A stretch of DNA of 64,000 bases from Candidatus Marinacidobacterium sp. (GCA_965204755.1 OZ242011.1:3232001-3296000), one strand, 5' to 3'. Positions 11,076-22,816 are shown, numbered from the stretch's first letter. The notes: generated by a model from the letters alone, not told the origin. Numbers and translations: made by a program.

Positions 11076-12746
11076 TTACCCGGTGCCCTTCGGCAGGAGT
11101 TCCTCGGCGATCCGGTCCAGTTTCTCGCGGACTTCGGGGTGGATCTCCTCGGGCTTCATGACCGCGGCGAGTTGGTAGAGGTCGGTCTTCTTCGTCCGCC
11201 GCCCGGCGCGTGCGAGCATGGGGAGGAGGATGTCCTCGCTCGCCTTCACTCGTCTGAGCAGAGGGTGGTCGCCGAAGAAATCCGTACCGTCCGGCAGTTG
11301 CCGACGGAACTCGGCGTCGATCTCGTCAGGGCTCGTCCCCGTAGTTCTTTCGACGAATCGCCTGATGGCGTCGGGGTGGAGCAGGTAGTTCTCGATTTCG
11401 TACCGGCGCCACTGCAGCACGAAGAACCCCGCTTGGTCGGCGCCCTCGTCCTTCCCGTCGCGGTTGTTGCCGTCGAGCAGGCACAGGCCGGGCAACTCCG
11501 GGAACTCGGTCCGCAGCAGGGAGAAGTGGCGGCGCGCCTGCTTCGGCAGCCGCCCGCGAAGCCGGCGGATGTTGGGCAGCGCGAAGAACTTCCTCGCCGG
11601 GTGTTCGAGGATGCGGGCCCATTCCCGCAGGATGTCCTCGTCGGACCCGTCCTCGACATAGAGGATCGCGCCGCGCTCCCGAGCGCGCAGGAGGTCGGAG
11701 ACTTCGAGTTCCCGAAGGGCCTCCACGAGTCGCGTCCGGTCCTGCGATGTCGACAGCGAGCGGGGACCGGTTGAGAAGAAACCGAGGATCTCGGACGGGT
11801 CAGTGGCGTTGAGGACGACCTCGGAGTGCGTTGCCGCGATGAGTTGGCCGCCGCGCCGGGAGATGACTTCGCGGATTCGTTGGACGACCTGCTTCTGCCG
11901 CAAAACATGTTGATGGGCGTCCGGCTCGTCCATCAGGATGACGGAACCGCGCCGGGCATGGAGGAACGCGAAGAGCAGGATCACCTGCAGCGCGCCCGTT
12001 CCCGCGCTCGACAGATCGAGAGGCCTCCGGTGTCCGTGCGCCCGGTACTCACAGCGGATGTAGGCGTCTGCCGGCGCATAGAGCGGTTTTTCCAGTTGGA
12101 TGCCGAGGATTCCCTCGACTACCTCCCGGAGAGCCGGCCAGTCTTCGGTATTCGCGCTGATTTCCAGCAGAAGGTTCCGCAGGATCTCCCCGGTGCGTCC
12201 CTGTCCGACCAGCAGATCCTGCATCCCGCGGTCATGGCGCTGTTCTTCTCGCGCGATTCCCGCAAGCGCCGGGACCTGAACCACTACGAGAGCCCGTGCG
12301 CCCGGGGGCGGGAATGACTCGAACTGTTGGCTGCTCATGTTCTTGACTGCCAACGGGCGCGCATAGAGGAGTTCCGAACTGTGGTACTGGAACTCCATTC
12401 CGCAGGTCCAGGTGTCGCCTTCGGTCTCGGCCTCGACAACGATCTCGATGCGTCGGGGTGTCCTGGGATCGAAGCGAACGGTGCGCTGTTCCCAAAGCAA
12501 GTTCAACTCGCGGACGGGAACCGGAGTGAACTGGCTACGAGTGATGGACGCACCGGTGCGTGCCCTGGCGCGGCTCCGAATGCGGTGCGCCAGCCACCGA
12601 TCCAATCCGAACTTCCAGGTCGAAATCGCCTGGAGCAGCGTCGTCTTGCCGGAGTCGTTCGCGCCCGCGAGGACGACGGACTCGGAGAGGTCGAAGACCT
12701 CCTCTTCGAACCGCTTGAAGTGGCGGACGGTGACGCGGCGGATCAT
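11076..12746 (-). CDS. ABC-type ATPase fused to TOPRIM-like nuclease (OLD/PARIS-like architecture)
   Basis: Walker A GANDSGKT, signature LSSAGTG, Walker B LMDEPDAH, ATHSE, then YVEDGSD and RRYEIENY. Confidence 0.78.
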   Translation of the reverse strand: MIRRVTVRHFKRFEEEVFDLSESVVLAGANDSGKTTLLQAISTWKFGLDRWLAHRIRSRARARTGASITRSQFTPVPVRELNLLWEQRTVRFDPRTPRRIEIVVEAETEGDTWTCGMEFQYHSSELLYARPLAVKNMSSQQFESFPPPGARALVVVQVPALAGIAREEQRHDRGMQDLLVGQGRTGEILRNLLLEISANTEDWPALREVVEGILGIQLEKPLYAPADAYIRCEYRAHGHRRPLDLSSAGTGALQVILLFAFLHARRGSVILMDEPDAHQHVLRQKQVVQRIREVISRRGGQLIAATHSEVVLNATDPSEILGFFSTGPRSLSTSQDRTRLVEALRELEVSDLLRARERGAILYVEDGSDEDILREWARILEHPARKFFALPNIRRLRGRLPKQARRHFSLLRTEFPELPGLCLLDGNNRDGKDEGADQAGFFVLQWRRYEIENYLLHPDAIRRFVERTTGTSPDEIDAEFRRQLPDGTDFFGDHPLLRRVKASEDILLPMLARAGRRTKKTDLYQLAAVMKPEEIHPEVREKLDRIAEELLPKGTG

Positions 12747-14557: not shown

Positions 14558-16246
14558 TCAGGAAGGGGCCGATCCGGAGGAGGCGTGGGCCAGGGGCGGC
14601 GGAGGGTCGAGCAGGAACTTCCGCAGCCAGTCCGGCGGCCCGCAGTCCGGTCGCATCGCGACAGCGCCGACCCGATGCTCGCAGATGTAGGACTCGTCCG
14701 CCAGCCAGGTGTAGCCGTCGTGCTCCACTGCCGAGGTCGTGGGCGCCACGATCAGCGTCGCCGCCGGTCGGAGTCCCTTCCGGCCCCAGCGCAGGCCGTC
14801 TTGGTAGGCGTGCGCCGTGTCCCCGATCTCGTTCAGGAGGTTCTTCGCCGTGTATTTGGAGTCGAGGAGCACGAAATCCGTTACCTGCCCGTCCCGACTG
14901 CGCGTCAGGAGGAGATCGGGACGGCGTTCCCGCGAGACCGCCCAGCCGTCTTCCCCCGGAACGCCCCAAGTGTTGCGGAAGGTGGATTGGAGATGGAGGG
15001 TGAGTGTGACCCCTCCCGCGCTTCCGACGACTTGCCGCCGGTCGCTCCCTTCCTTCCCGCCCGGAGTCCAGTCCCACTCCGGAAGCCACTTGCGAAGTCG
15101 TTTCGCCAGCGCGACGAAGCACCATCGCTCGTAGATCTCCCAGGTCGGGGCGAGGGGAAGCAGGTCGGTGCGGTCGAGCCCGTACACCCCGGGCCGCAGC
15201 GCCGCCCAGGCGGTCTGCCAGAACCGGGAGTAGATCGGGTGCGCGGAGACCGCGTTCAGGCCGGCGGCGGTCACTTCCGCGCGGGTGACTTGCGAAAACG
15301 GCGGACGCCTCTCCGCGGCGCGGAAGGCGCGCTCCATCTCTCCGAGCAGGGCCACGCGCTCCGGCAGCCGGGCGGCGAGCGCGGTCCGGGTGTCCGATTC
15401 CTGCCGGTCGGCGAGTTCCCGGAGCCGCTTCGGGAGTTCGGCGGCGCGGCGAACCAGGGCGCGCAGCATCAACAGCGCGGCGCGGTTCGCGGGGGAATCC
15501 ACCGTGCGCTCCACCGCCGGCGTGTCGAAGATGGGCTCGGCGGAAATTCCGGGAGTCGACCGGCGGGCTGCGGCCTCCGCGCCGCGTTTCCGAGCGGCCG
15601 GAAGCGACTCGAGCGCGGCCCGGCTGCCGAGCGCCGCCCGCAGCGTGCGAAGGTCGGCGCGTCGGACTTCCCGGAGCGGGACGAAGCGGCGGCGGGGGCG
15701 GAGCACCGTCGCCGGGTCCCGACGCACCGCGGCGATCGCGGCGTCGAGTGGTTCCCGGCGGCTTCGCAGGCGCTCGAAGAGCACCAGCGGGTCGTCCGTC
15801 GGGCCGACGGCCCCCATCTTTCGCTTCGCCGGTTCCTCGCCGAGCAACAGGGCGGCGTCGAAGTCCAGGATCTCTTCGACCATGCGCTCGAAGACCTCGC
15901 CGCCGAGTTTCTCGGGCGCCGGCCCGACATCGAGTCGGTAGGTCGCGAGCGTCTGTCCGCCGGCGTCGACGAGCCGCGCCCGGACTTCGCCGGCGAAGAA
16001 GCCGGGCGTCCACTTCCAGCAGATGGCGCCGTCCGTGGTTTCTTCTGCTTCCAGGAGTTCGTCGTCCACGAAGAGGCGCAGGCCGCGATCCTTCGGCGCG
16101 GCGGCGATGAAGACGGTCTTCCGGAGTTCGGAGAACCCGCCGTTGACTTCGCGCGGATCGAGCGGCTTCCCGTTCTGGACGCGCAACGCGACCGCGCCGT
16201 CCGCCACGGCGTCACCGGGCGGCCGGAGACTCGGCATCTCGTTCAT
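14558..16246 (-). CDS. mcrC: McrC-like DUF2357 / PD-(D/E)XK nuclease
   Basis: From MNEMPSL (ATG 16246); RTVDSPANR, WEIYERWCF, RRPDLLL...LLDSKY catalytic motif; directly downstream of two McrB-like genes. Confidence 0.85.
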   Translation of the reverse strand: MNEMPSLRPPGDAVADGAVALRVQNGKPLDPREVNGGFSELRKTVFIAAAPKDRGLRLFVDDELLEAEETTDGAICWKWTPGFFAGEVRARLVDAGGQTLATYRLDVGPAPEKLGGEVFERMVEEILDFDAALLLGEEPAKRKMGAVGPTDDPLVLFERLRSRREPLDAAIAAVRRDPATVLRPRRRFVPLREVRRADLRTLRAALGSRAALESLPAARKRGAEAAARRSTPGISAEPIFDTPAVERTVDSPANRAALLMLRALVRRAAELPKRLRELADRQESDTRTALAARLPERVALLGEMERAFRAAERRPPFSQVTRAEVTAAGLNAVSAHPIYSRFWQTAWAALRPGVYGLDRTDLLPLAPTWEIYERWCFVALAKRLRKWLPEWDWTPGGKEGSDRRQVVGSAGGVTLTLHLQSTFRNTWGVPGEDGWAVSRERRPDLLLTRSRDGQVTDFVLLDSKYTAKNLLNEIGDTAHAYQDGLRWGRKGLRPAATLIVAPTTSAVEHDGYTWLADESYICEHRVGAVAMRPDCGPPDWLRKFLLDPPPPLAHASSGSAPS

Positions 16247-16269
16247 GGTGGAGCCTTCGAACCCGGTCG

Positions 16270-17211
16270 TCAGCGCCAGAAACTGCAACTGCCGGCGGCT
16301 TCCAGGTCCTCTTGCAGGCCTCGAACCTTGGTGGCGCACCTGTCGAGGCCGGCGTTCTCCAGCACGGCGACCGTGTCCTCCAAACACCTGCGGAATCGTG
16401 GCGTGTCGCTCCCCCGCAGTTTCGGGAGCACCTTGGCGTAGATCACCCGGTCGAGCGCGGCGTCGGCGCCGATCTCGATCCCGGAGTCGCGGGAGCGTCC
16501 CTCGAGGAAACCCACGACCTCCGCAATCACCCGCCAGCCGAAGTGCCGCCGCGCCGGCGAGAGTGTCTTCGCGAGGGCCGCCAGCAGGCCGCGAACCTTC
16601 CTTTTCTCGCCTTCGTCGAGTTCGCGCGACTCCCAGCCGGGCCACTCCTCCGGCTCGATGTCCCAGAACTCGAGGGTGAACGCGCGGTCGAGCACCTTGT
16701 CCGAGATGCCCATCGTCGTCTCGTCCATGTTCACCGTCCCGATGATGACCAGGTTCTTGGGGTAGGCCACGCCGGTCGGTACGCCCAACTCGTCCGGATC
16801 GCCGCGGTGGAGGGGGATCTCCCCGTCCGCGATCTCCATCGCGCTCAGGATCGGGGCGAAGTACTGCTCCGGGTGCGACAGGTTCATCTCGTCCAGGATC
16901 AGGACATGGGTCTCGTCGGGCTTCGCCGCGGCTTCGAGCAGGAAGTTCAGGAACTCGGTGCGCGCGTAGCCGCCGGTCAGCGGATTCACATACCCGAGCA
17001 GCGGGCCGGGGTCGTGCCAACCGGGATGGACGGCGATGACCTCGACGGGCCCTCCGGTGTCGCTCTCCGCCCCGGTGAGCGCCATGGCGTAGTGGAGCGC
17101 GATCCGGGTCTTCCCGGTCCCGGACAGCCCGGAGAGAACCGCGAAGTGCCGCTGTTCGTCCGCCCACAGCCCGAGATGCAGCGCCTCCACGAGCGACCGC
17201 TCGAACCGCAG
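16270..17211. repeat. ~940-bp direct repeat, copy B (AAA module of McrB copy 2)
   Basis: Aligns without gaps to 18360..19301 at a constant 2090-bp offset; mostly identical and ends at the stop codon. Confidence 0.93.
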
Positions 17212-18363
17212 ATTCTCCGCGCCGGCTTGGCGGGCCATCGTTCCCCACAACTTGGCGAACTCGCTCAACCCCGAGAACAGGCCGTCGATCGGATACACGC
17301 GCTGCGGTCTGTCGAAGATTCCGGGGTCGGTGAAATCGCTGCGCGGAATCTCGGCAGGCGCCCACTTCACCGGCCGCGTATGCCGATGCTGTCCGTTCAC
17401 TTCGCCGTGCTCGTACTCCCCGTCGACGGTTCCCCACGCGATGCGCCTCCCGGCTTGCCGGCGGGGAAGGATCACGATGTCGCCCCCACGCATCTCCCGG
17501 GCGAACTTCCAGACCTGCGCGGCCCGGCCCGCCACTCCCTGCAACGACTGCTCCGGGTTCTGCTGGTGAACGACGGTGCGGTAACGCCGGAAGTCGCTGG
17601 TATCGGGGGCGGGCAGGTCGGCGAAGCCGATCATGGCCAAGCGGTTGGACAGCACGAAGTCTTCCGGGCCCTTCTCGTCGTGCTCGCCGGCCCGGACCAC
17701 CCAGATCGTCGGCCGGGTTTCTTCGGGCGGCTCGTGTCCGTTCCGCTCTCGCGACAGCAGACTGAGTTCGTTGACCAGGAGCATCCGCTCCGCCGTCCCT
17801 GCCAGTGCGTCCGCCGGCGCCCCGATCACTTCCCGGAGCCGGTCGAGCACGAGGCGGTGCGCCCCAATCGGATTGTTTCCGGGAACGGGACATCCGATGG
17901 CTCTCGAGAGTCCTACGATCCAATCCTTGTAGGCGAGGCCGGTGAAGTCCTCGGGGAAAAAGAGGGCCAGCGTGCGCAGGCTCTCGATCCACGGCTTTCT
18001 GGCGCCGCCCTTCGCGATCCGTTCCAGCGCATCGTCGTTCAGTCTTCGAAGGAACCGGACGCGCTCGTCCCGGCCCTCCGGCGGCGTCTGGACGGTCCGG
18101 CTCGCAAACCAGGCGCAGAAGTCCGCGTCGAGGAAACCGAAGTCCTTGACGAGGCCGCCCTCCCACAGCGTGCGGTCCGCCCAGACCTCACGCTGAAAGG
18201 CATCTGCCGCCCGCTCGCTTCGGTTCGCGTCGCGGATCCGCTGAAGCAACCGCGCCAGTCTCTCCACCCGTTCGGGGGCGACCCGCTCCCCGGCCCGCCG
18301 GCAGGCGGTCCTCAGCCCCTCGTCGGTCTTGAGTTCGAGGGGCGCCCGATCGGCCGGCGTCAT
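16270..18363 (-). CDS. mcrB: McrB-like AAA+ GTPase, copy 2 (helical N-domain, WxVRAG PUA/EVE-like domain, AAA)
   Basis: GLSGTGKT, LILDEMNLS, GTVNMDE (NxD signature), KVLDRA, KVLPKLRG; ATG 18363 overlaps the stop of copy 1. Confidence 0.9.
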   Translation of the reverse strand: MTPADRAPLELKTDEGLRTACRRAGERVAPERVERLARLLQRIRDANRSERAADAFQREVWADRTLWEGGLVKDFGFLDADFCAWFASRTVQTPPEGRDERVRFLRRLNDDALERIAKGGARKPWIESLRTLALFFPEDFTGLAYKDWIVGLSRAIGCPVPGNNPIGAHRLVLDRLREVIGAPADALAGTAERMLLVNELSLLSRERNGHEPPEETRPTIWVVRAGEHDEKGPEDFVLSNRLAMIGFADLPAPDTSDFRRYRTVVHQQNPEQSLQGVAGRAAQVWKFAREMRGGDIVILPRRQAGRRIAWGTVDGEYEHGEVNGQHRHTRPVKWAPAEIPRSDFTDPGIFDRPQRVYPIDGLFSGLSEFAKLWGTMARQAGAENLRFERSLVEALHLGLWADEQRHFAVLSGLSGTGKTRIALHYAMALTGAESDTGGPVEVIAVHPGWHDPGPLLGYVNPLTGGYARTEFLNFLLEAAAKPDETHVLILDEMNLSHPEQYFAPILSAMEIADGEIPLHRGDPDELGVPTGVAYPKNLVIIGTVNMDETTMGISDKVLDRAFTLEFWDIEPEEWPGWESRELDEGEKRKVRGLLAALAKTLSPARRHFGWRVIAEVVGFLEGRSRDSGIEIGADAALDRVIYAKVLPKLRGSDTPRFRRCLEDTVAVLENAGLDRCATKVRGLQEDLEAAGSCSFWR

Positions 18364-19301
18364 CGCCAGAAACTGCAACTGCCGGTCGCGTCCAGGTCTT
18401 CCTTCAGACTCCGAACCTTCCGGGCGCACATCTCGAGTCCCGCCTTCTCCAGCGCGGCGGCCGTCTCGTCCAGGCACTTGCGGAACCGGGGCGTGTCGCT
18501 TCCCCGCAGTTTCGGCAGCACCTTGGCGTAGATCACCTGGTCGAGCGCCGCGTCAGGGCCGATCTCGATTCCGGAGTCGCGGGAGCGTCCCTCCAAGAAG
18601 CCCACGACTTCCGAGATCACCCGCCACCCGAAGTGCCGCCGCGCCGGCGAGAGAGTCCTCGTGAGGGCCGCCAGCAGGCCGCGAACCTTCGCCTTCTCGC
18701 TTCCGTCGAGTCCGCAGGACTCCCAGCCGGGCCACTCCTCGGGCTCGATGTCCCAGAACTCGAGAGTGAACGCGCGGTCGAGCACCTTGTCCGAGATCCC
18801 CATCGTGGTCTCGTCCATGTTGACCGTCCCGATGAGGACCAAGTTCTTCGGGTAGGGGACTCCCGTCGGGACGCCCAACTTTTCGGGGTCGCCGCGGTGG
18901 AGCGGGATCTCGCCGTCGGGGATCTCCATCGCGCTCAGGATCGGCGCGAAGTACTGCTCCGGGTGCGACAGGTTCATCTCGTCCAGGATCAGGACATGGG
19001 TCTCCTCCGGTTTGGCCGCGGCTTCGAGCAGGAAGTTCAGGAACTCGGTGCGCGCGTAGCCGCCGGTCAGCGGGTTCACATACCCGAGCAGCGGGCCGGG
19101 GTCGTGCCAACCGGGATGGACGGCGATGACCTCGACCGGCCCTCCGGTGTCGCTCTCCGCCCCGGTGAGCGCCATCGCGTAGCGCAACGCGATCTGGGTC
19201 TTCCCGGTCCCGGACAGCCCGGAGAGAACTGCGAAGTGCCGCTGCTCGTCCGCCCACAGCCCGAGATGCAGCGCCTCCACCAACGACCGCTCGAACCGCA
19301 G
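18360..19301. repeat. ~940-bp direct repeat, copy A (AAA module of McrB copy 1)
   Basis: Near-identical to 16270..17211. Confidence 0.93.
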
Positions 19302-20981
19302 GTCGGCCTCGTCGGCTTGAAGACGAATCGCCTCCCACAAGTCGTCCATCGGGGGCAGCGGGTTGGCGCGCTCGGGCGTCCAGTGAATCTTCTTCCGCCA
19401 CCTGACGCCGCGCTCGGTGAGGGAGAGACTGCCGGCGTCATCTGCCTTGACGACCCTCACCTGACGGAGAAAGTTCACCAAATCTGAAGCGGCGCCTTCC
19501 TTCATGGCGACCTTCGACTGCAGGTGGGCCACCAAGTCCTTCTTGGGTTGCGGATTCGCCTCGAGCCGACTAAGGGCGTGGTCGGCGCCGCGGATGCGCG
19601 TCAGGAGGCACTCCATCAGGAGTTCGGCGTCGTTGTCTTCGCGCACCTTGCGACCGAGATCAGTGATCAGAATTCTCCCGTCCACGGTTTCCGTGCAGCG
19701 CAACACCGTCGCGGCTTCGATCTGGAAGTCGGTCGTCCCGACAGGCTGTCCCGGGAATTCCTCCGTCATCCGGGTGTGCAGGGCGTTCCGGTCGATTCCT
19801 TCGCCGACCAAACCCAGCATCCAGTACAACCGGCCGAAAGGATCGTCTCCTCCGAGGTGGAGGAGGATCCGGCGTTCCTGCAAAGGCAGCGGCTGCATCC
19901 CGTTGAGCACCGGCTCGATGTGTTCCGCGCGCTTGTGTAGGGAGAAGACCGTCGGGGGTTGGTCGAAGTACCTCCTATGGTCGCCGAACGCGGTCCGGGG
20001 AATGTCCGTGCGAACCCACTTCACCGGGCGCGTGTGGCGCGGCTGGCCCTCGACTTCTCGGTGCGCATATTCCCCTTCCACCGTGCCCCACGCGATGTGT
20101 CGTTCCCCTCTCTTTCGGGGAAGAACGACGATGTCTCCCTTTTGGATCTCCCACGCGAAGTTCCAGACCTGATCTGCGTTCGCCGTCACGGCGTTCTTCG
20201 GCCAGTCGGGATGCAGTGCCTGAACCACCTTGCGGTACGCCTTGTGGTCGTCGGTGTCGGGAGCGGGCAGGTTCTCGAAACCGAGCATGGCGATCCCGTT
20301 CGCCAGGACATATTCCTCATCCTGACCATCGCCGCCGGCGCGCACCCCCCAGAGGCGGGGCTCGGTGCACAGGTTCCAATACAGTTCATAACCGGTCAGC
20401 ATCCGCTCCGCCAGCCCATCGAAGCCTTCCTCCGGCGACCCGAGCACGCCTTCCAGGCGATCCAGAATGAGGCGATTCGCCTGGACCGGGTCATTGCCCG
20501 CGACATCGAGATCCAGCGTGTCGGCCAACCGTTTGAGTTTCCCCTTGTTGGCGAGATCCGTGAAGGACTCTGGAAAGAAGAGCGCGAGAGTTCGCAGGGC
20601 CTCCACATGCGGCTTGAAGTCGAGCGCCGACTGTGCGCGAAGCAGGATCTCTTCCAGGAAGCGCTTCAACGCCTTGGTTCGCTGGTGTTCGTCCTCTCGC
20701 TGAACCAGCACGGTCTCTCCGACGAACCACTGGCAGAAATCTTTCGAGAGGAGCGTGTCCAGTTGCGTTTCCGACATCAGGCCGCCGTCCCATACGAGGT
20801 TGCTGCTCCAGGCGCGCTTCTGGAACGCGCGATCTGCTCGGCGTGCCTCGGTGGCGCCGTCGATCTCCGCCAGGTACTCGGCGAGGTTCGCGATGTCGCC
20901 GCCGTCGATCCCGGAGATGGCGACCTCGCAGGCGGCCTTCAGGCCGTCGTCGGTCTTTGGGTCGTGCGGGACTCTGGGCAT
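18360..20981 (-). CDS. mcrB: McrB-like AAA+ GTPase, copy 1 (as copy 2 plus an extra ~190-aa probable winged-helix region)
   Basis: Same AAA motifs; LWGVRAG...GDIVVLP...HTRPVKW domain; ITDLG and LSLTERG wing-like motifs. Confidence 0.9.
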   Translation of the reverse strand: MPRVPHDPKTDDGLKAACEVAISGIDGGDIANLAEYLAEIDGATEARRADRAFQKRAWSSNLVWDGGLMSETQLDTLLSKDFCQWFVGETVLVQREDEHQRTKALKRFLEEILLRAQSALDFKPHVEALRTLALFFPESFTDLANKGKLKRLADTLDLDVAGNDPVQANRLILDRLEGVLGSPEEGFDGLAERMLTGYELYWNLCTEPRLWGVRAGGDGQDEEYVLANGIAMLGFENLPAPDTDDHKAYRKVVQALHPDWPKNAVTANADQVWNFAWEIQKGDIVVLPRKRGERHIAWGTVEGEYAHREVEGQPRHTRPVKWVRTDIPRTAFGDHRRYFDQPPTVFSLHKRAEHIEPVLNGMQPLPLQERRILLHLGGDDPFGRLYWMLGLVGEGIDRNALHTRMTEEFPGQPVGTTDFQIEAATVLRCTETVDGRILITDLGRKVREDNDAELLMECLLTRIRGADHALSRLEANPQPKKDLVAHLQSKVAMKEGAASDLVNFLRQVRVVKADDAGSLSLTERGVRWRKKIHWTPERANPLPPMDDLWEAIRLQADEADLRFERSLVEALHLGLWADEQRHFAVLSGLSGTGKTQIALRYAMALTGAESDTGGPVEVIAVHPGWHDPGPLLGYVNPLTGGYARTEFLNFLLEAAAKPEETHVLILDEMNLSHPEQYFAPILSAMEIPDGEIPLHRGDPEKLGVPTGVPYPKNLVLIGTVNMDETTMGISDKVLDRAFTLEFWDIEPEEWPGWESCGLDGSEKAKVRGLLAALTRTLSPARRHFGWRVISEVVGFLEGRSRDSGIEIGPDAALDQVIYAKVLPKLRGSDTPRFRKCLDETAAALEKAGLEMCARKVRSLKEDLDATGSCSFWR

Positions 20982-21167
20982 GGTGTTTCAGTCGTCAGGA
21001 AGGGCGAGCGGACAGGGCGTCGGCCGGGCGTCGCAGCGGGAAAGCGTCGGGCCCAGCCTCCGGTGATCGGGAATCGCGGAGAATACGCGACCGGTAGGCC
21101 GGTTCGACCTCCGGCGACCGGAGCAATGGGATCGAGGTCAACTCGCCCTTCGTGGCCGGGCGCCCAC

Positions 21168-21982
21168 TCACGCTTGCGCGTTCCACGGGGGATCGAGATC
21201 GCGGATGAGTCGGGCTTCGAGCGGGCGGGGCTCGGCGGTCTCGTGGATCCAGAGTTCGATGGCCCGGCCGGCGCGAGATTCGAGGAGGAACGCGTGGTTG
21301 ACCTTGCAGTTCGTGGACTGGCCGCCCTCGAAGCAGTTCCGGGGCGAGATGCGGCCGTAGCCCATGGGGCCCCACCGCTGCCGGATGTCCACGGAGATGC
21401 CCACATAGACCACCGCGCCGGCGACGGTGACCGCGTAGACGCCCGGCGCCGACGGCAGCCCCGGCACCGTGAATTCGCAGAACGGGCCCGCGCCGTGGGC
21501 GTTGAGGCGGAGCCGCCGATGTTGGCGTAGCGTCCCTGCGGCATCTCTTCCCGGATCGCGCCGCCGGGCTCCCGAACCGGCTCGATGGCGCCCGCCCAGC
21601 CGAAAGCGAGGCCATCCAGCGACAGCGTGTCGCCGCTCTCAGGTGTCGCGGGGAAGTGCTGCGGGTCACTCCGCGGCGGGCGCGAAGTCGGCGGGCTGGG
21701 GCGGGGCGCCCGGCGTGGGGCCGGGGGCGCCGCAGAGCCGACTCGGTGGAACTCCACGGTCTCGCCGTGGTGATCCACATTGGCCGTTTCCCAGCCGGCA
21801 TCGATCCAAGCCTTGGCCTGGCTGTGGCTCCGGTCGTTGTTGCTCCACCACGCGGGGTACATCCGCGCAGAGGGGGGCAGTTCTTTGCCGAGTACGGCTT
21901 CGATCTCGGAAAAAGTCGCGCGCCACGGGCTCGTGTCCCGCGCTGCGAGGAAGTCACCGAGAGGCTGGTACTTGCTGGCCAT
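21168..21982 (-). pseudogene. DUF7662 + GIY-YIG nuclease fusion interrupted by a 1-nt frameshift near 21511-21518
   Basis: MASKYQPL...TFSEIE...LPPSA...WWSN...SQAKAW (DUF7662-like) reads to QGRYANIG; the -1 frame continues LRLNAHGAGPFCEFTVPGLPSAPGVYAV...VYVG...GGQSTNCKVN...PPWN. Confidence 0.72.
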
Positions 21983-22114: not shown

Positions 22115-22816
22115 TCAGCGGGCGCCGGCGCCGAAAGTGTCCCGGAGGGCGGGGGCGTTGGCGATGAGTTCGCCGAGGTCCGTCATCGCGTTCTCCATCG
22201 CGATCTCCACGGCGGCGCCGAGGATCGTGGCGCCCTGGTCGCACCCGAAGCCGGAACTGGTCTGCACCGCGTTGCCCTCCACGGACTCCCGGAACAGCAG
22301 GCCGTCCTCGGTGAAGACGGAGACGGCGAGGACGAGGGCGGTGGAGGCCTCCAGCCCCATGAACCCGGTCGAGGCGACCGCGGCGTTGAAGACCTCGGCG
22401 CGGACGGCCACCACCATGTCGAAGCCCCGCTCCACCATGTCGTCCCGCCGCATCTGCACCGGCGTGAGATCCACCTGCCGCACGAGGGGCTGCAGCGTGC
22501 CCACGACCGAGCCGGCCAAGGCGTCGCGGGCGTCCACCGGGTAGTTGGAGTTCTCGCAGTGCCCGTCCTCTTCCGCGAGGATCTGGACATCGCGCCAGAG
22601 TTGCTCCCCGTCCACGAAGACCGCGGCGCGGGCCGGCAGCGGCGAGTCGAAGGCGTAGGCGGCGCGGGACGGCGCGGCGCGCACGACGACGCCGTAGGTG
22701 CAGGCCGACGCGGCGAGGGCCCCGGCCGCCAGGGCGGCAGCGGCGGCGAGGAGCGCCGGCCTCGGCTGGCGCTGCGAACGTTCCCGGTTGGCGCCGGGTT
22801 CTGGGCGTGGATTCAT
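22115..22816 (-). CDS. Hypothetical lipoprotein
   Basis: LAASAC lipobox after a hydrophobic stretch; AAGGAG RBS; protein-like composition. Confidence 0.7.
   Translation of the reverse strand: MNPRPEPGANRERSQRQPRPALLAAAAALAAGALAASACTYGVVVRAAPSRAAYAFDSPLPARAAVFVDGEQLWRDVQILAEEDGHCENSNYPVDARDALAGSVVGTLQPLVRQVDLTPVQMRRDDMVERGFDMVVAVRAEVFNAAVASTGFMGLEASTALVLAVSVFTEDGLLFRESVEGNAVQTSSGFGCDQGATILGAAVEIAMENAMTDLGELIANAPALRDTFGAGAR

Follow-up and report, generated by a model that had tools for sequence, protein, structure and literature searches.

We analysed a stretch of 64,000 nucleotides (nt) from Candidatus Marinacidobacterium sp. (GCA_965204755.1 OZ242011.1:3232001-3296000; hereafter the window), in which a locus of the McrBC kind occupies positions 14558-21982. 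Among motor-driven type IV restriction enzymes, McrBC is the textbook case. By open reading frame (ORF) listing and translation, the locus lies on the minus strand and consists, in order of transcription, of a DUF7662/GIY-YIG-like gene, two McrB genes (McrB1 and McrB2, or B1 and B2) and one McrC gene. A first-pass annotation of the DNA had given this order, with McrBs of 873 and 697 amino acids (aa) and an ATGA-coupled second McrB, and the ORF calls bear it out. McrB1 (18360-20981), recognized as an ORF, by the match of McrB2, 90% identical to it in that part, to E. coli McrB and by PADLOC, has four parts: an all-helical domain that we call N200 (residues 1-205 of the structure model; 20367-20981), a PUA/YTH/EVE-like domain of family DUF8426 (residues 206-350; 19932-20366; VIA-align, ESM Atlas and PADLOC), a tandem winged-helix block (residues about 365-539; 19365-19889; model, VIA-align and Foldseek), and an AAA+ GTPase module delimited by alignment (residues 561-873; 18363-19301). 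The TGA stop of McrB1 and the ATG start of McrB2 overlap as ATGA at 18360-18363. The ORF of McrB2 (16270-18363) encodes an N200 domain (18363-17719), a PUA-like DUF8426 domain (17718-17314) and an AAA+ module (17211-16273). McrC (14558-16246, 562 aa) starts 23 nt past the McrB2 stop and is preceded by GAAGG. The DUF7662/GIY-YIG-like gene (21168-21982), placed by its Pfam DUF7662 match and by two-frame translation, ends 186 nt ahead of the McrB1 start and carries a 1-nt frameshift near 21512. Below, the AAA+ module is termed the motor, and the domains in front of it the head. The locus is real and recurrent, and it is a variant of McrBC not described in the literature searched.

The AAA core matched E. 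coli McrB chains in a phmmer search (E 4.9e-10, B2 residues 408-572) and the PADLOC candidate PDC-M26A at E 1e-34 (3.6e-34 for McrB1). Walker A (GLSGTGKT; 19220-19197 in McrB1) and Walker B (LILDEMN; 18992-18972 in McrB1) are intact in both proteins, and the signature VNMDE (NMDE motif of McrB1, 18824-18810) aligned without gaps on E. coli MNTAD, giving the form NxD followed by E. An NxD motif followed by E or D defines a large McrB branch without any characterized GTPase as of 2024 (PMC11090510). The same paper announces a follow-up on NxD systems other than CoCoNuTs. In Pfam the two McrBs scored 17.6 and 18.7 bits with AAA_5, under the cut-off of 22, and AAA_22 was also sub-threshold. The NCBIfam equivalog for E. 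coli-type McrB has a cut-off of 637 bits, and the two McrBs reached 32.5 and 33.1, so far below it that the proteins are to be seen as distant relatives and not as orthologues of E. coli McrB. On this sequence evidence, the locus is of McrBC type and, by its motif, would fall in the NxD branch.

McrC was identified by its DUF2357 domain (residues 151-323; 27.6 bits in Pfam, cut-off 23.3), and a nuclease motif of the form RPD...x14...DSK can be read in its sequence (RPDLLL, 14923-14906; LLDSKY, 14869-14852). No Pfam nuclease family matched the window's McrC at E <= 0.01. Its orthologue in G001, the genome of the sister species and sole other species of the genus (the window's own species being G000), is 63% identical and matched PDDEXK_7 with 26.8 bits at a cut-off of 22.1. 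A phmmer search of McrC against the PDB returned nothing meaningful, a metagenome scan with McrC alone gave 99 pattern matches and 0 relatives, and PADLOC models were absent for McrC and for the GIY-YIG homologues, the HEPN gene and the winged-helix gene described below.

Two McrB genes with like motors and unlike heads

Over their last 313 aa, McrB1 and McrB2 are 90.1% identical, with 31 differing residues, and the underlying 939 nt are 90.5% identical; the earlier description of the AAA modules as almost identical therefore holds in that they are highly alike, and is slightly overstated. Most of the 31 differences are conservative, and 23 lie within the last 120 residues. The heads are ~45% identical, with an N200 domain in each, in agreement with the homologous but diverged N-terminal domains of ~200 aa noted before, and McrB1 alone has an extra block of ~190 aa, previously called winged-helix-like, which alignment and modelling support as a tandem winged helix. 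Identity breaks off sharply about five residues ahead of LRFERSL (BLASTP and codon-aware alignment). Third-codon-position identity is ~0.45 in the head and ~0.85 in the AAA module, and Nei-Gojobori estimates for B1 versus B2 gave a synonymous divergence (dS) of 0.27 and a non-synonymous divergence (dN) of 0.05 for the AAA module, compared with a dS of 1.13 and a dN of 0.52 for the head. For the McrB pair of G001, the AAA dS was 0.37 and the head dS 1.84. Since constraint at the protein level cannot account for a fourfold synonymous difference within one pair, head and motor have had different histories.

Adjacent genes of this kind could be an artefact or a neutral accident: collapsed or mis-joined strain alleles, or a recent duplicate heading for loss. 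The window lies within one 3.98-Mb contig. We mapped Logan contigs from four runs (X1, X3, X7 and X11), belonging to four studies, on 14558-21982. The short contigs of all four runs break within the repeated AAA parts, as repeats do, and this speaks for an artefact. Contig cover was lacking in X11 over 19270-21982 and in X3 over parts of 19022-19765, which is not evidence of absence. Against an artefact, the B1/B2 junction at 18360-18363 was bridged in four of four runs, by contigs covering 17161-18795 in X1 (with 0 differences), 17747-18542 in X3, 17109-18585 in X7 and 17125-18587 in X11. Mis-assembly of two strain alleles, a danger to which the first-pass annotation had pointed, is ruled out by these four runs together with the same tandem in G001, and the claim of a tandem stands. 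Moreover, both McrB genes are intact, head dS values above 1 mean that the heads are old, and orthologues of B1 as well as of B2 are found in several strains. As far as the contigs show, the artefact reading is refuted, and we hold it to be almost certainly wrong.

Of the family's 28 species genomes, one of which is G000, ten matched the AAA query at E <= 1e-60, and two adjacent AAA matches were found in two, G000 and G001, both species of the genus. The G001 locus reads, in order, a Swt1-like HEPN-winged-helix gene, a 191-aa winged-helix gene, two McrBs termed Bb (711 aa) and Ba (716 aa), and McrC; Ba starts 17 nt past the Bb stop, and McrC overlaps Ba as ATGA. Its HEPN gene (L017 10013-11900, minus strand; E 1.6e-33) is fused to a winged-helix pair, and the 191-aa gene, which encodes such a pair as a free-standing counterpart of the McrB1 block, ends 1 nt ahead of the first McrB. 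Single-copy relatives with their own McrC are B2-like in G004 and G009 and B1-like in G006, and other relatives have a different domain order, for example with the PUA-like domain first in G007. The wider family was sampled as the best 80 of 591 genome relatives and the best 80 of 584 metagenome relatives, many of the metagenome contigs being short; outside the clade, two AAA modules were present at 0/80 genome and 0/80 metagenome loci of this sample. The usual architectures of the wider family are N200 plus AAA and N200 plus winged-helix pair plus AAA, from which the winged-helix block appears to be a common family element and the PUA-like domain an addition of the clade. DUF8426-like domains fused directly to distant McrBs (L165 1306-2691 and L177 361-1773; 34-35% AAA identity) suggest that McrBs recruited DUF8426 more than once. 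The nearest titled loci belong, by title, to metagenome-assembled genomes of Acidobacteriota (Vicinamibacteria-type) and 'Spirochaetia', and metagenome runs from sponges and from marine sources contain related strains.

A larger pool of heads was found in a collection of 5.8 billion proteins, where the B1 AAA query retrieved 1267 proteins at E <= 1e-60, the best 120 of which were listed. Co-location was assigned to proteins with the same size of longest contig, a proxy that was confirmed for G000 and G001. Among the best 120 of 1267, this proxy yielded 17 contig groups (37 proteins) with two or three McrBs each. The synteny check proposed for double-mcrB loci recovered the tandem in G001, McrBs co-located by the proxy in these groups, and no tandem at the 160 wider loci sampled outside the clade. 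Single-linkage clustering of the first 200 residues of the 37 proteins at 65% identity gave seven head types. T3 was paired with T4 in five groups, those of the window's species, and T1 with T5 in three; T6+T2, T6+T1 and T1+T2 were found in two groups each (one T1+T2 group having a third McrB, of type T7), and T5+T2, T1+T7 and T2+T7 in one group each. Long forms, with the winged helices, and short forms both occur inside types T1, T5 and T6. Whatever the heads, AAA identity within a contig was 89-97% in 17 of the 17 groups; across contigs with different heads it reached 98.7% (P0307/P0308) and 96.8% (P0304/P0295).

B1 and B2 form a clade in the AAA tree (support 99/96), apart from the G001 pair, and in a quick AAA tree of 44 rows the modules of one contig were sisters in c16281 (support 100), c53933 (96), c25472 (97), c47654 (80) and c104296 (80). 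The tree of the four heads of G000 and G001 is an unresolved star with branches of 0.54-0.82. Between genomes, AAA dS was 0.49-0.63, exceeding the within-genome values of 0.27 and 0.37. A single old duplication with independently evolving copies does not fit the dS values of AAA module and head, the trees or the pairings. These sequence comparisons indicate that recombination at the boundary between head and motor has episodically homogenized the motors and/or exchanged the heads.

Some McrBs of the collection are built differently. P0315 (1254 aa; contig of 16095 nt) is a double-headed McrB with a B1-type head (72% identical), a second complete head that includes the winged-helix pair, and one AAA module; it looks like the product of a recombination that removed the first motor, and could also be an assembly artefact. 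Contigs apparently with three McrBs are represented by P0284, P0309, P0095 (570 aa), P0320, P0321 and P0318, the 570-aa form having N200 without the PUA-like domain, and three McrBs that begin with the PUA-like domain are encoded in a genome of 4.33 Mb.

Folds of the head domains

The head of B1 was modelled in two parts, residues 1-350 from an 86-sequence alignment (predicted local distance difference test (pLDDT) 95.0, predicted template modelling score (pTM) 0.81) and residues 345-560 from 43 sequences (pLDDT 89.8); the remainder of B1 is the 313-aa AAA module. Both models are globular, and neither contains a long coiled coil. Structural relatives were sought with Foldseek and, independently, with VIA-align.

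With residues 1-350, the top Foldseek rows were all YTH domains or PH1033-type proteins (best E 1.5e-2, probability 0.99). In VIA-align, residues 208-350 matched the DNA-reading N-domain of VcaM4I with Z 9.1 (root-mean-square deviation (rmsd) 3.1, 111 residues aligned), followed by PH1033 (Z 8.9), YTH domains (Z 6.5-8.0), THYN1 with 5-methylcytosine (5mC) DNA (Z 6.3) and ASCH (Z 5.7). Among McrB N-domains, those of Staphylothermus marinus and Thermococcus gammatolerans gave Z 5.5 and Z 5.0. The domain, which carries the motif WxVRAG, was assigned to DUF8426 by ESM Atlas (score 0.91) and by the precomputed PF28530.1 of both McrBs, and it matched PADLOC candidate PDC-S02 at 5e-27 (McrB1) and 4.9e-23. 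The PUA/EVE-like character first proposed for the WxVRAG domain is thus supported at the level of the modelled fold, through VIA-align, as a PUA-like beta-barrel.

The N200 domain, marked by the motif KTDDGL...LRTLALFFPE...AERML, aligned over residues 9-207 with the 8-oxoguanine (8-oxoG) glycosylase Tm1821 (Z 8.3, rmsd 4.0, 158 residues). Including Tm1821, 13 of the 50 VIA-align rows listed were of HhH-GPD type and spanned residues about 9-207; others of this type were MagIII, EndoIII, AGOG, Mag1, MutY, NTHL1, a thymine glycosylase, Ogg and the queuine-salvage DUF2419. The balance of these model comparisons leans towards an HhH-GPD-glycosylase-like fold for N200. In 34 aligned N200 domains, the only invariant residues are F53 and P137, and W58, R130 and R175 are near-invariant.

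The block peculiar to McrB1 consists of two winged helices in tandem. VIA-align matches covering both were the FokI recognition domain (Z 11.1, 163 residues aligned), N.BspD6I (Z 10.6, 161), BpuJI (Z 9.8, 167) and BrxA (Z 8.6), and the best Foldseek match was BpuJI at E 2.9e-3. In runs X3 and X7, positions 19428-19922 are replaced by 505 unlike letters between flanks that are 92-99% identical, which points to a block that is hypervariable between strains.

The upstream DUF7662/GIY-YIG-like gene

The first-pass annotation had included an upstream GIY-YIG nuclease. Its position and its DUF7662 domain (Pfam, 57.9 bits, cut-off 26, 8.7e-16, residues 5-80) were confirmed; however, the gene is not one open frame and the GIY-YIG label is weak, so that its standing as a working part is reduced. 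Three-frame translation places the DUF7662 part at 21982-~21512 and the GIY-YIG-like part in another frame at ~21527-21168, the window having 1 base fewer than intact 271-aa homologues (P0001, 96% identical over the GIY-YIG-like part, which served as the query). The sequence 'GVYAVT...VYVG' can be read in this part, NCBIfam UvrC-type stretches matched at E 5e-4 and 1.7e-3, far under their cut-offs, and the homologue P0070, 49% identical, carries the NCBI name GIY-YIG nuclease; a Pfam scan of the gene gave no GIY-YIG match. The frameshift recurs in an X1 contig of 6783 nt that agrees with the window over 19251-21982 with 0 differences and 0 gaps, which makes a sequencing error unlikely; X1 may, however, be the source sample and so not independent of the strain. 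In run X3, from a related strain, the frame is restored by a single additional C behind 21512 (depth 93.3 of 93.3).

The evidence on the role of this gene is mixed. In favour of an accessory role, homologues were placed on contigs of clade McrBs in four further cases by the equal-size proxy (P0002 with P0265 and P0247, P0012 with P0279, P0013 with P0310, and P0006 with P0315). Against a core role stand the frameshift, the placement of the G001 homologues at 2.70 and 3.86 Mb, away from the McrBC locus at 2.44 Mb, where the HEPN gene takes the upstream position, and the presence of the gene at 0/160 wider loci. From these gene arrangements, we read the upstream position as a putative slot for an exchangeable second nuclease, which would be inactive, being frameshifted, in the window's strain. 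Four matches to the DUF7662/GIY-YIG-like protein lie within 2.2 kb at G001:C1:2702218-2704416, one of them with an internal stop, which suggests that the family is multi-copy or mobile. In P0013 (441 aa; contig of 6928 nt), a GIY-YIG-like domain 77% identical to that of the window is fused to a winged-helix pair that replaces DUF7662, and this pair, common to P0013, McrB1 and the G001 HEPN protein, also speaks for an accessory role. No paper on DUF8426 or DUF7662 was found in the literature searches.

Proposed mode of action and relation to known systems

We consider it likely that the locus is a modification-dependent type IV McrBC system of the NxD branch, in which two coupled McrBs with different heads and a shared motor design are served by a single McrC. 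This reading builds on the gene set and motifs, on the head folds, on a tandem present in four read sets and again in the sister species, and on the uncoupled histories of head and motor. Each McrB would form GTP-dependent hexamers through its AAA+ module, and the heads would bind modified or otherwise foreign DNA, the winged-helix pair of McrB1 perhaps adding sequence- or shape-specific binding. McrC, with its DUF2357 and PD...DxK motif, would dock on either kind of hexamer, stimulate GTP hydrolysis and cut. In known McrBC, insertion of McrC stimulates hydrolysis by McrB, and two hexamers are joined through McrC (PMC7680126; PMC6344862; 10.64898/2026.08.31.748284). Two heads on one compatible motor would then widen the target range with one nuclease, and the two kinds of head-bearing subunit would compete for, or share, one McrC. 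Recombination or gene conversion at the head/motor boundary may keep the motors alike, and the same process may exchange heads between loci, with the upstream gene as a variable accessory nuclease.

Several observations weigh against this reading or against parts of it. For the 15 contig groups beyond G000 and G001, co-location was inferred by proxy and not seen directly. In the window's species, the AAA modules of long and of short forms group separately (supports 86 and 94 in the quick tree), from which it would follow that no conversion has occurred since the G000-like strains split and that homogenization is episodic. Foldseek, an early suggestion for classifying the heads, gave the YTH/PH1033 and BpuJI top rows, but no match in the PDB at E <= 0.001 for either head model. 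Pfam EVE (PF01878) does not match the PUA-like domain, and searches with isolated heads up to E 5 gave chance rows. VIA-align itself calls Z values of 8-11 common and urges caution for helical domains, and the modelled N200 with its Z of 8.3 may reflect merely a common helical arrangement; a profile of the 34 N200 sequences retrieved one chance row from PDB sequences, at E 0.14. The conserved catalytic residues of HhH-GPD glycosylases are an Asp (and a Lys) behind the helix-hairpin-helix. The 34 N200 domains share no invariant Asp or Lys, so that an active glycosylase is not evident and, provided that the fold is correctly assigned, a reader is the likelier function. Finally, a DNA target is not certain, given the Swt1-like HEPN gene of G001 and the predicted targeting of RNA by the NxD branch (PMC11090510).

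The last point leads to a system that would sense or cut RNA instead of, or besides, DNA, like its CoCoNuT relatives. The NMDE signature fits the NxD(E/D) motif of that branch (PMC11090510), the structures most similar to the PUA-like domain include YTH domains that read N6-methyladenosine (m6A) in RNA, and the HEPN domain of G001 is fused to the same winged-helix pair as is found in McrB1. Yet McrC retains PD...DxK, the PUA-like domain finds its top structural match in a domain with which a restriction enzyme, VcaM4I, reads DNA, the winged-helix pair is similar to type IIS DNA recognition domains and the modelled N200 fold to DNA glycosylases, and no coiled-coil, cold-shock or SmpB-like domain was seen in the Pfam scan or the head models; we give RNA a low probability. 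That one paralogue chiefly modulates the other, by titrating McrC or by capping complexes, appears just as improbable. In E. coli, McrBs reportedly acts as such a modulator. McrBs is a second polypeptide with the same AAA module and without the DNA-binding domain (PMC6344862), and the present locus likewise makes two McrB polypeptides per McrC; both paralogues, however, keep full heads with intact Walker A, Walker B and NMDE motifs, and the conservation of heads as types across contigs argues for a reading function in both.

Motors as uniform as these are equally compatible with mixed hexamers, with homohexamers sharing McrC and with plain gene conversion among the tandem repeats. An obligate heteromer, a sharper form of the mixed hexamers inferred in the first-pass annotation, would consist of B1/B2 mixed hexamers, or of B1 and B2 hexamers bridged by McrC dimers; it would cleave upon simultaneous recognition of two different marks or sites (coincidence detection) or would have a combined specificity. 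In its favour, the ATGA coupling favours balanced co-expression, the motors are ~90% alike in every pair throughout the 17 contig groups, the B1/B2 differences are mostly conservative and concentrated near the end of the module, and known McrBC consists of two hexamers joined through McrC (10.64898/2026.08.31.748284). We nevertheless regard it as rather unlikely, although less so than the two preceding alternatives: the solitary B2-like and B1-like relatives imply that each can work as a homomer, the G001 McrBs are spaced 17 nt apart, with their own GAGGAG, and not overlapped, and the free pairing of head types does not suggest co-adapted partners. Since each architecture also occurs alone elsewhere with its own McrC, we rank two enzymes with one nuclease above an obligate heteromer. 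A more ambitious picture can be offered tentatively: a modular, multi-headed McrBC with two to three McrBs per locus and at least seven exchangeable heads, in which recombination at a fixed boundary would keep the motors compatible, a heteromer would integrate two DNA marks, a second nuclease (GIY-YIG or HEPN) would be recruited through the winged-helix module, and the head would be a new reader derived from an inactivated DNA-glycosylase fold.

Taken as two coupled McrBs on one McrC, the locus shares with E. coli McrBC an AAA+ GTPase with an N-terminal DNA reader, together with a McrC that has DUF2357 and, here, a candidate PD-(D/E)xK motif, in one operon (PMC11090510). Also in common are two McrB polypeptides with one kind of AAA module, which in E. 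coli are McrB and McrBs from one gene (PMC6344862), whereas here two genes encode two full heads. It further differs in having NMD(E) instead of NTAD, and glycosylase-like and PUA-like domains (plus winged helices) instead of the E. coli 5mC-binding domain. NxD McrBC systems and CoCoNuTs likewise have NxD followed by E, YTH-like or EVE-superfamily domains on the GTPase, and a second, putative nuclease gene beside McrBC, which is GIY-YIG-like and frameshifted here and HEPN in G001 (PMC11090510); as differences, the head models here contain no coiled coil, McrC keeps PD...DxK, and there are two to three McrBs per locus. In the main text of PMC11090510, the terms 'two McrB', 'multiple McrB', 'second McrB', 'paralog', 'heterohexamer', 'GIY-YIG', 'glycosylase' and 'winged helix' have 0 occurrences. 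The McrBs of T. gammatolerans and S. marinus, with YTH-like N-domains, and VcaM4I, with a PUA-superfamily reader and HNH, similarly place a PUA/YTH-like reader of modified cytosine on a restriction machine, but identity to them is 5-14%, and the reader here stands behind a further helical domain and belongs to DUF8426.

The three-gene McrBC relatives LlaI and BsuMI have a separable DNA-binding polypeptide, to be compared with the 191-aa winged-helix protein of G001, and are site-specific, as the FokI/BpuJI-like block may be too; LlaI differs in having one motor gene (10.64898/2026.08.31.748284), and the window in carrying the block as an internal part of McrB1. Intragenomic McrB paralogues with divergent N-termini have been noted (PMC2614495; PMC2993543), and in B. 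anthracis one McrC was proposed to serve two unlinked McrBs (PMC4722110). In these three papers, the paralogues are separate mcrBC loci or unlinked genes, and not tandem coupled genes with homogenized motors and exchangeable heads. No description of the latter arrangement was found in the literature searched, the supplements of PMC11090510, which may list such loci, lying outside the search, and within that scope the earlier view that this is not an already described McrBC subtype is upheld.

The locus and its relatives amount to a natural experiment in target change, in which motor and nuclease stay constant while heads are duplicated, swapped, split off (the winged-helix gene of G001) and fused in series (P0315). 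If both heads work with one McrC, this would be a cheap route to wider immunity and a ready scaffold for engineering McrBC specificity, which the LlaI preprint raises as a problem (10.64898/2026.08.31.748284). Neither of two candidate readers, the glycosylase-like N200 domain and DUF8426, has a described function.

G+C content is 0.63-0.68 over 16000-21000, compared with 0.72-0.78 in the flanks (window range 0.63-0.78), and the flanking genes are housekeeping genes (ilvD, panE, rhodanese and ddl); this drop suggests, from base composition and gene content, that the McrBC locus is an acquired islet. Another low-G+C patch (0.65) holds a 556-aa ABC-type ATPase (11076-12746, minus strand; Pfam AAA_15 and AAA_21), whose top PADLOC rows were AriA/AriAB (PARIS), followed by NsnB, AbiLi, PtuA and GajA, and which may be a second small defence gene amid housekeeping genes. 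On the minus strand between ddl and the DUF7662 gene, an open frame of 233 aa (22115-22816) has no Pfam or PADLOC family and, the DNA being G+C-rich, may not be a gene. Elsewhere in the G000 genome, weak McrB-like AAA matches were found at G000:C1:2364262-2364735 (L004, E 4.7e-9) and 3066280-3066540 (L005, E 7.6e-4), within open frames of 521 and 857 aa, respectively.

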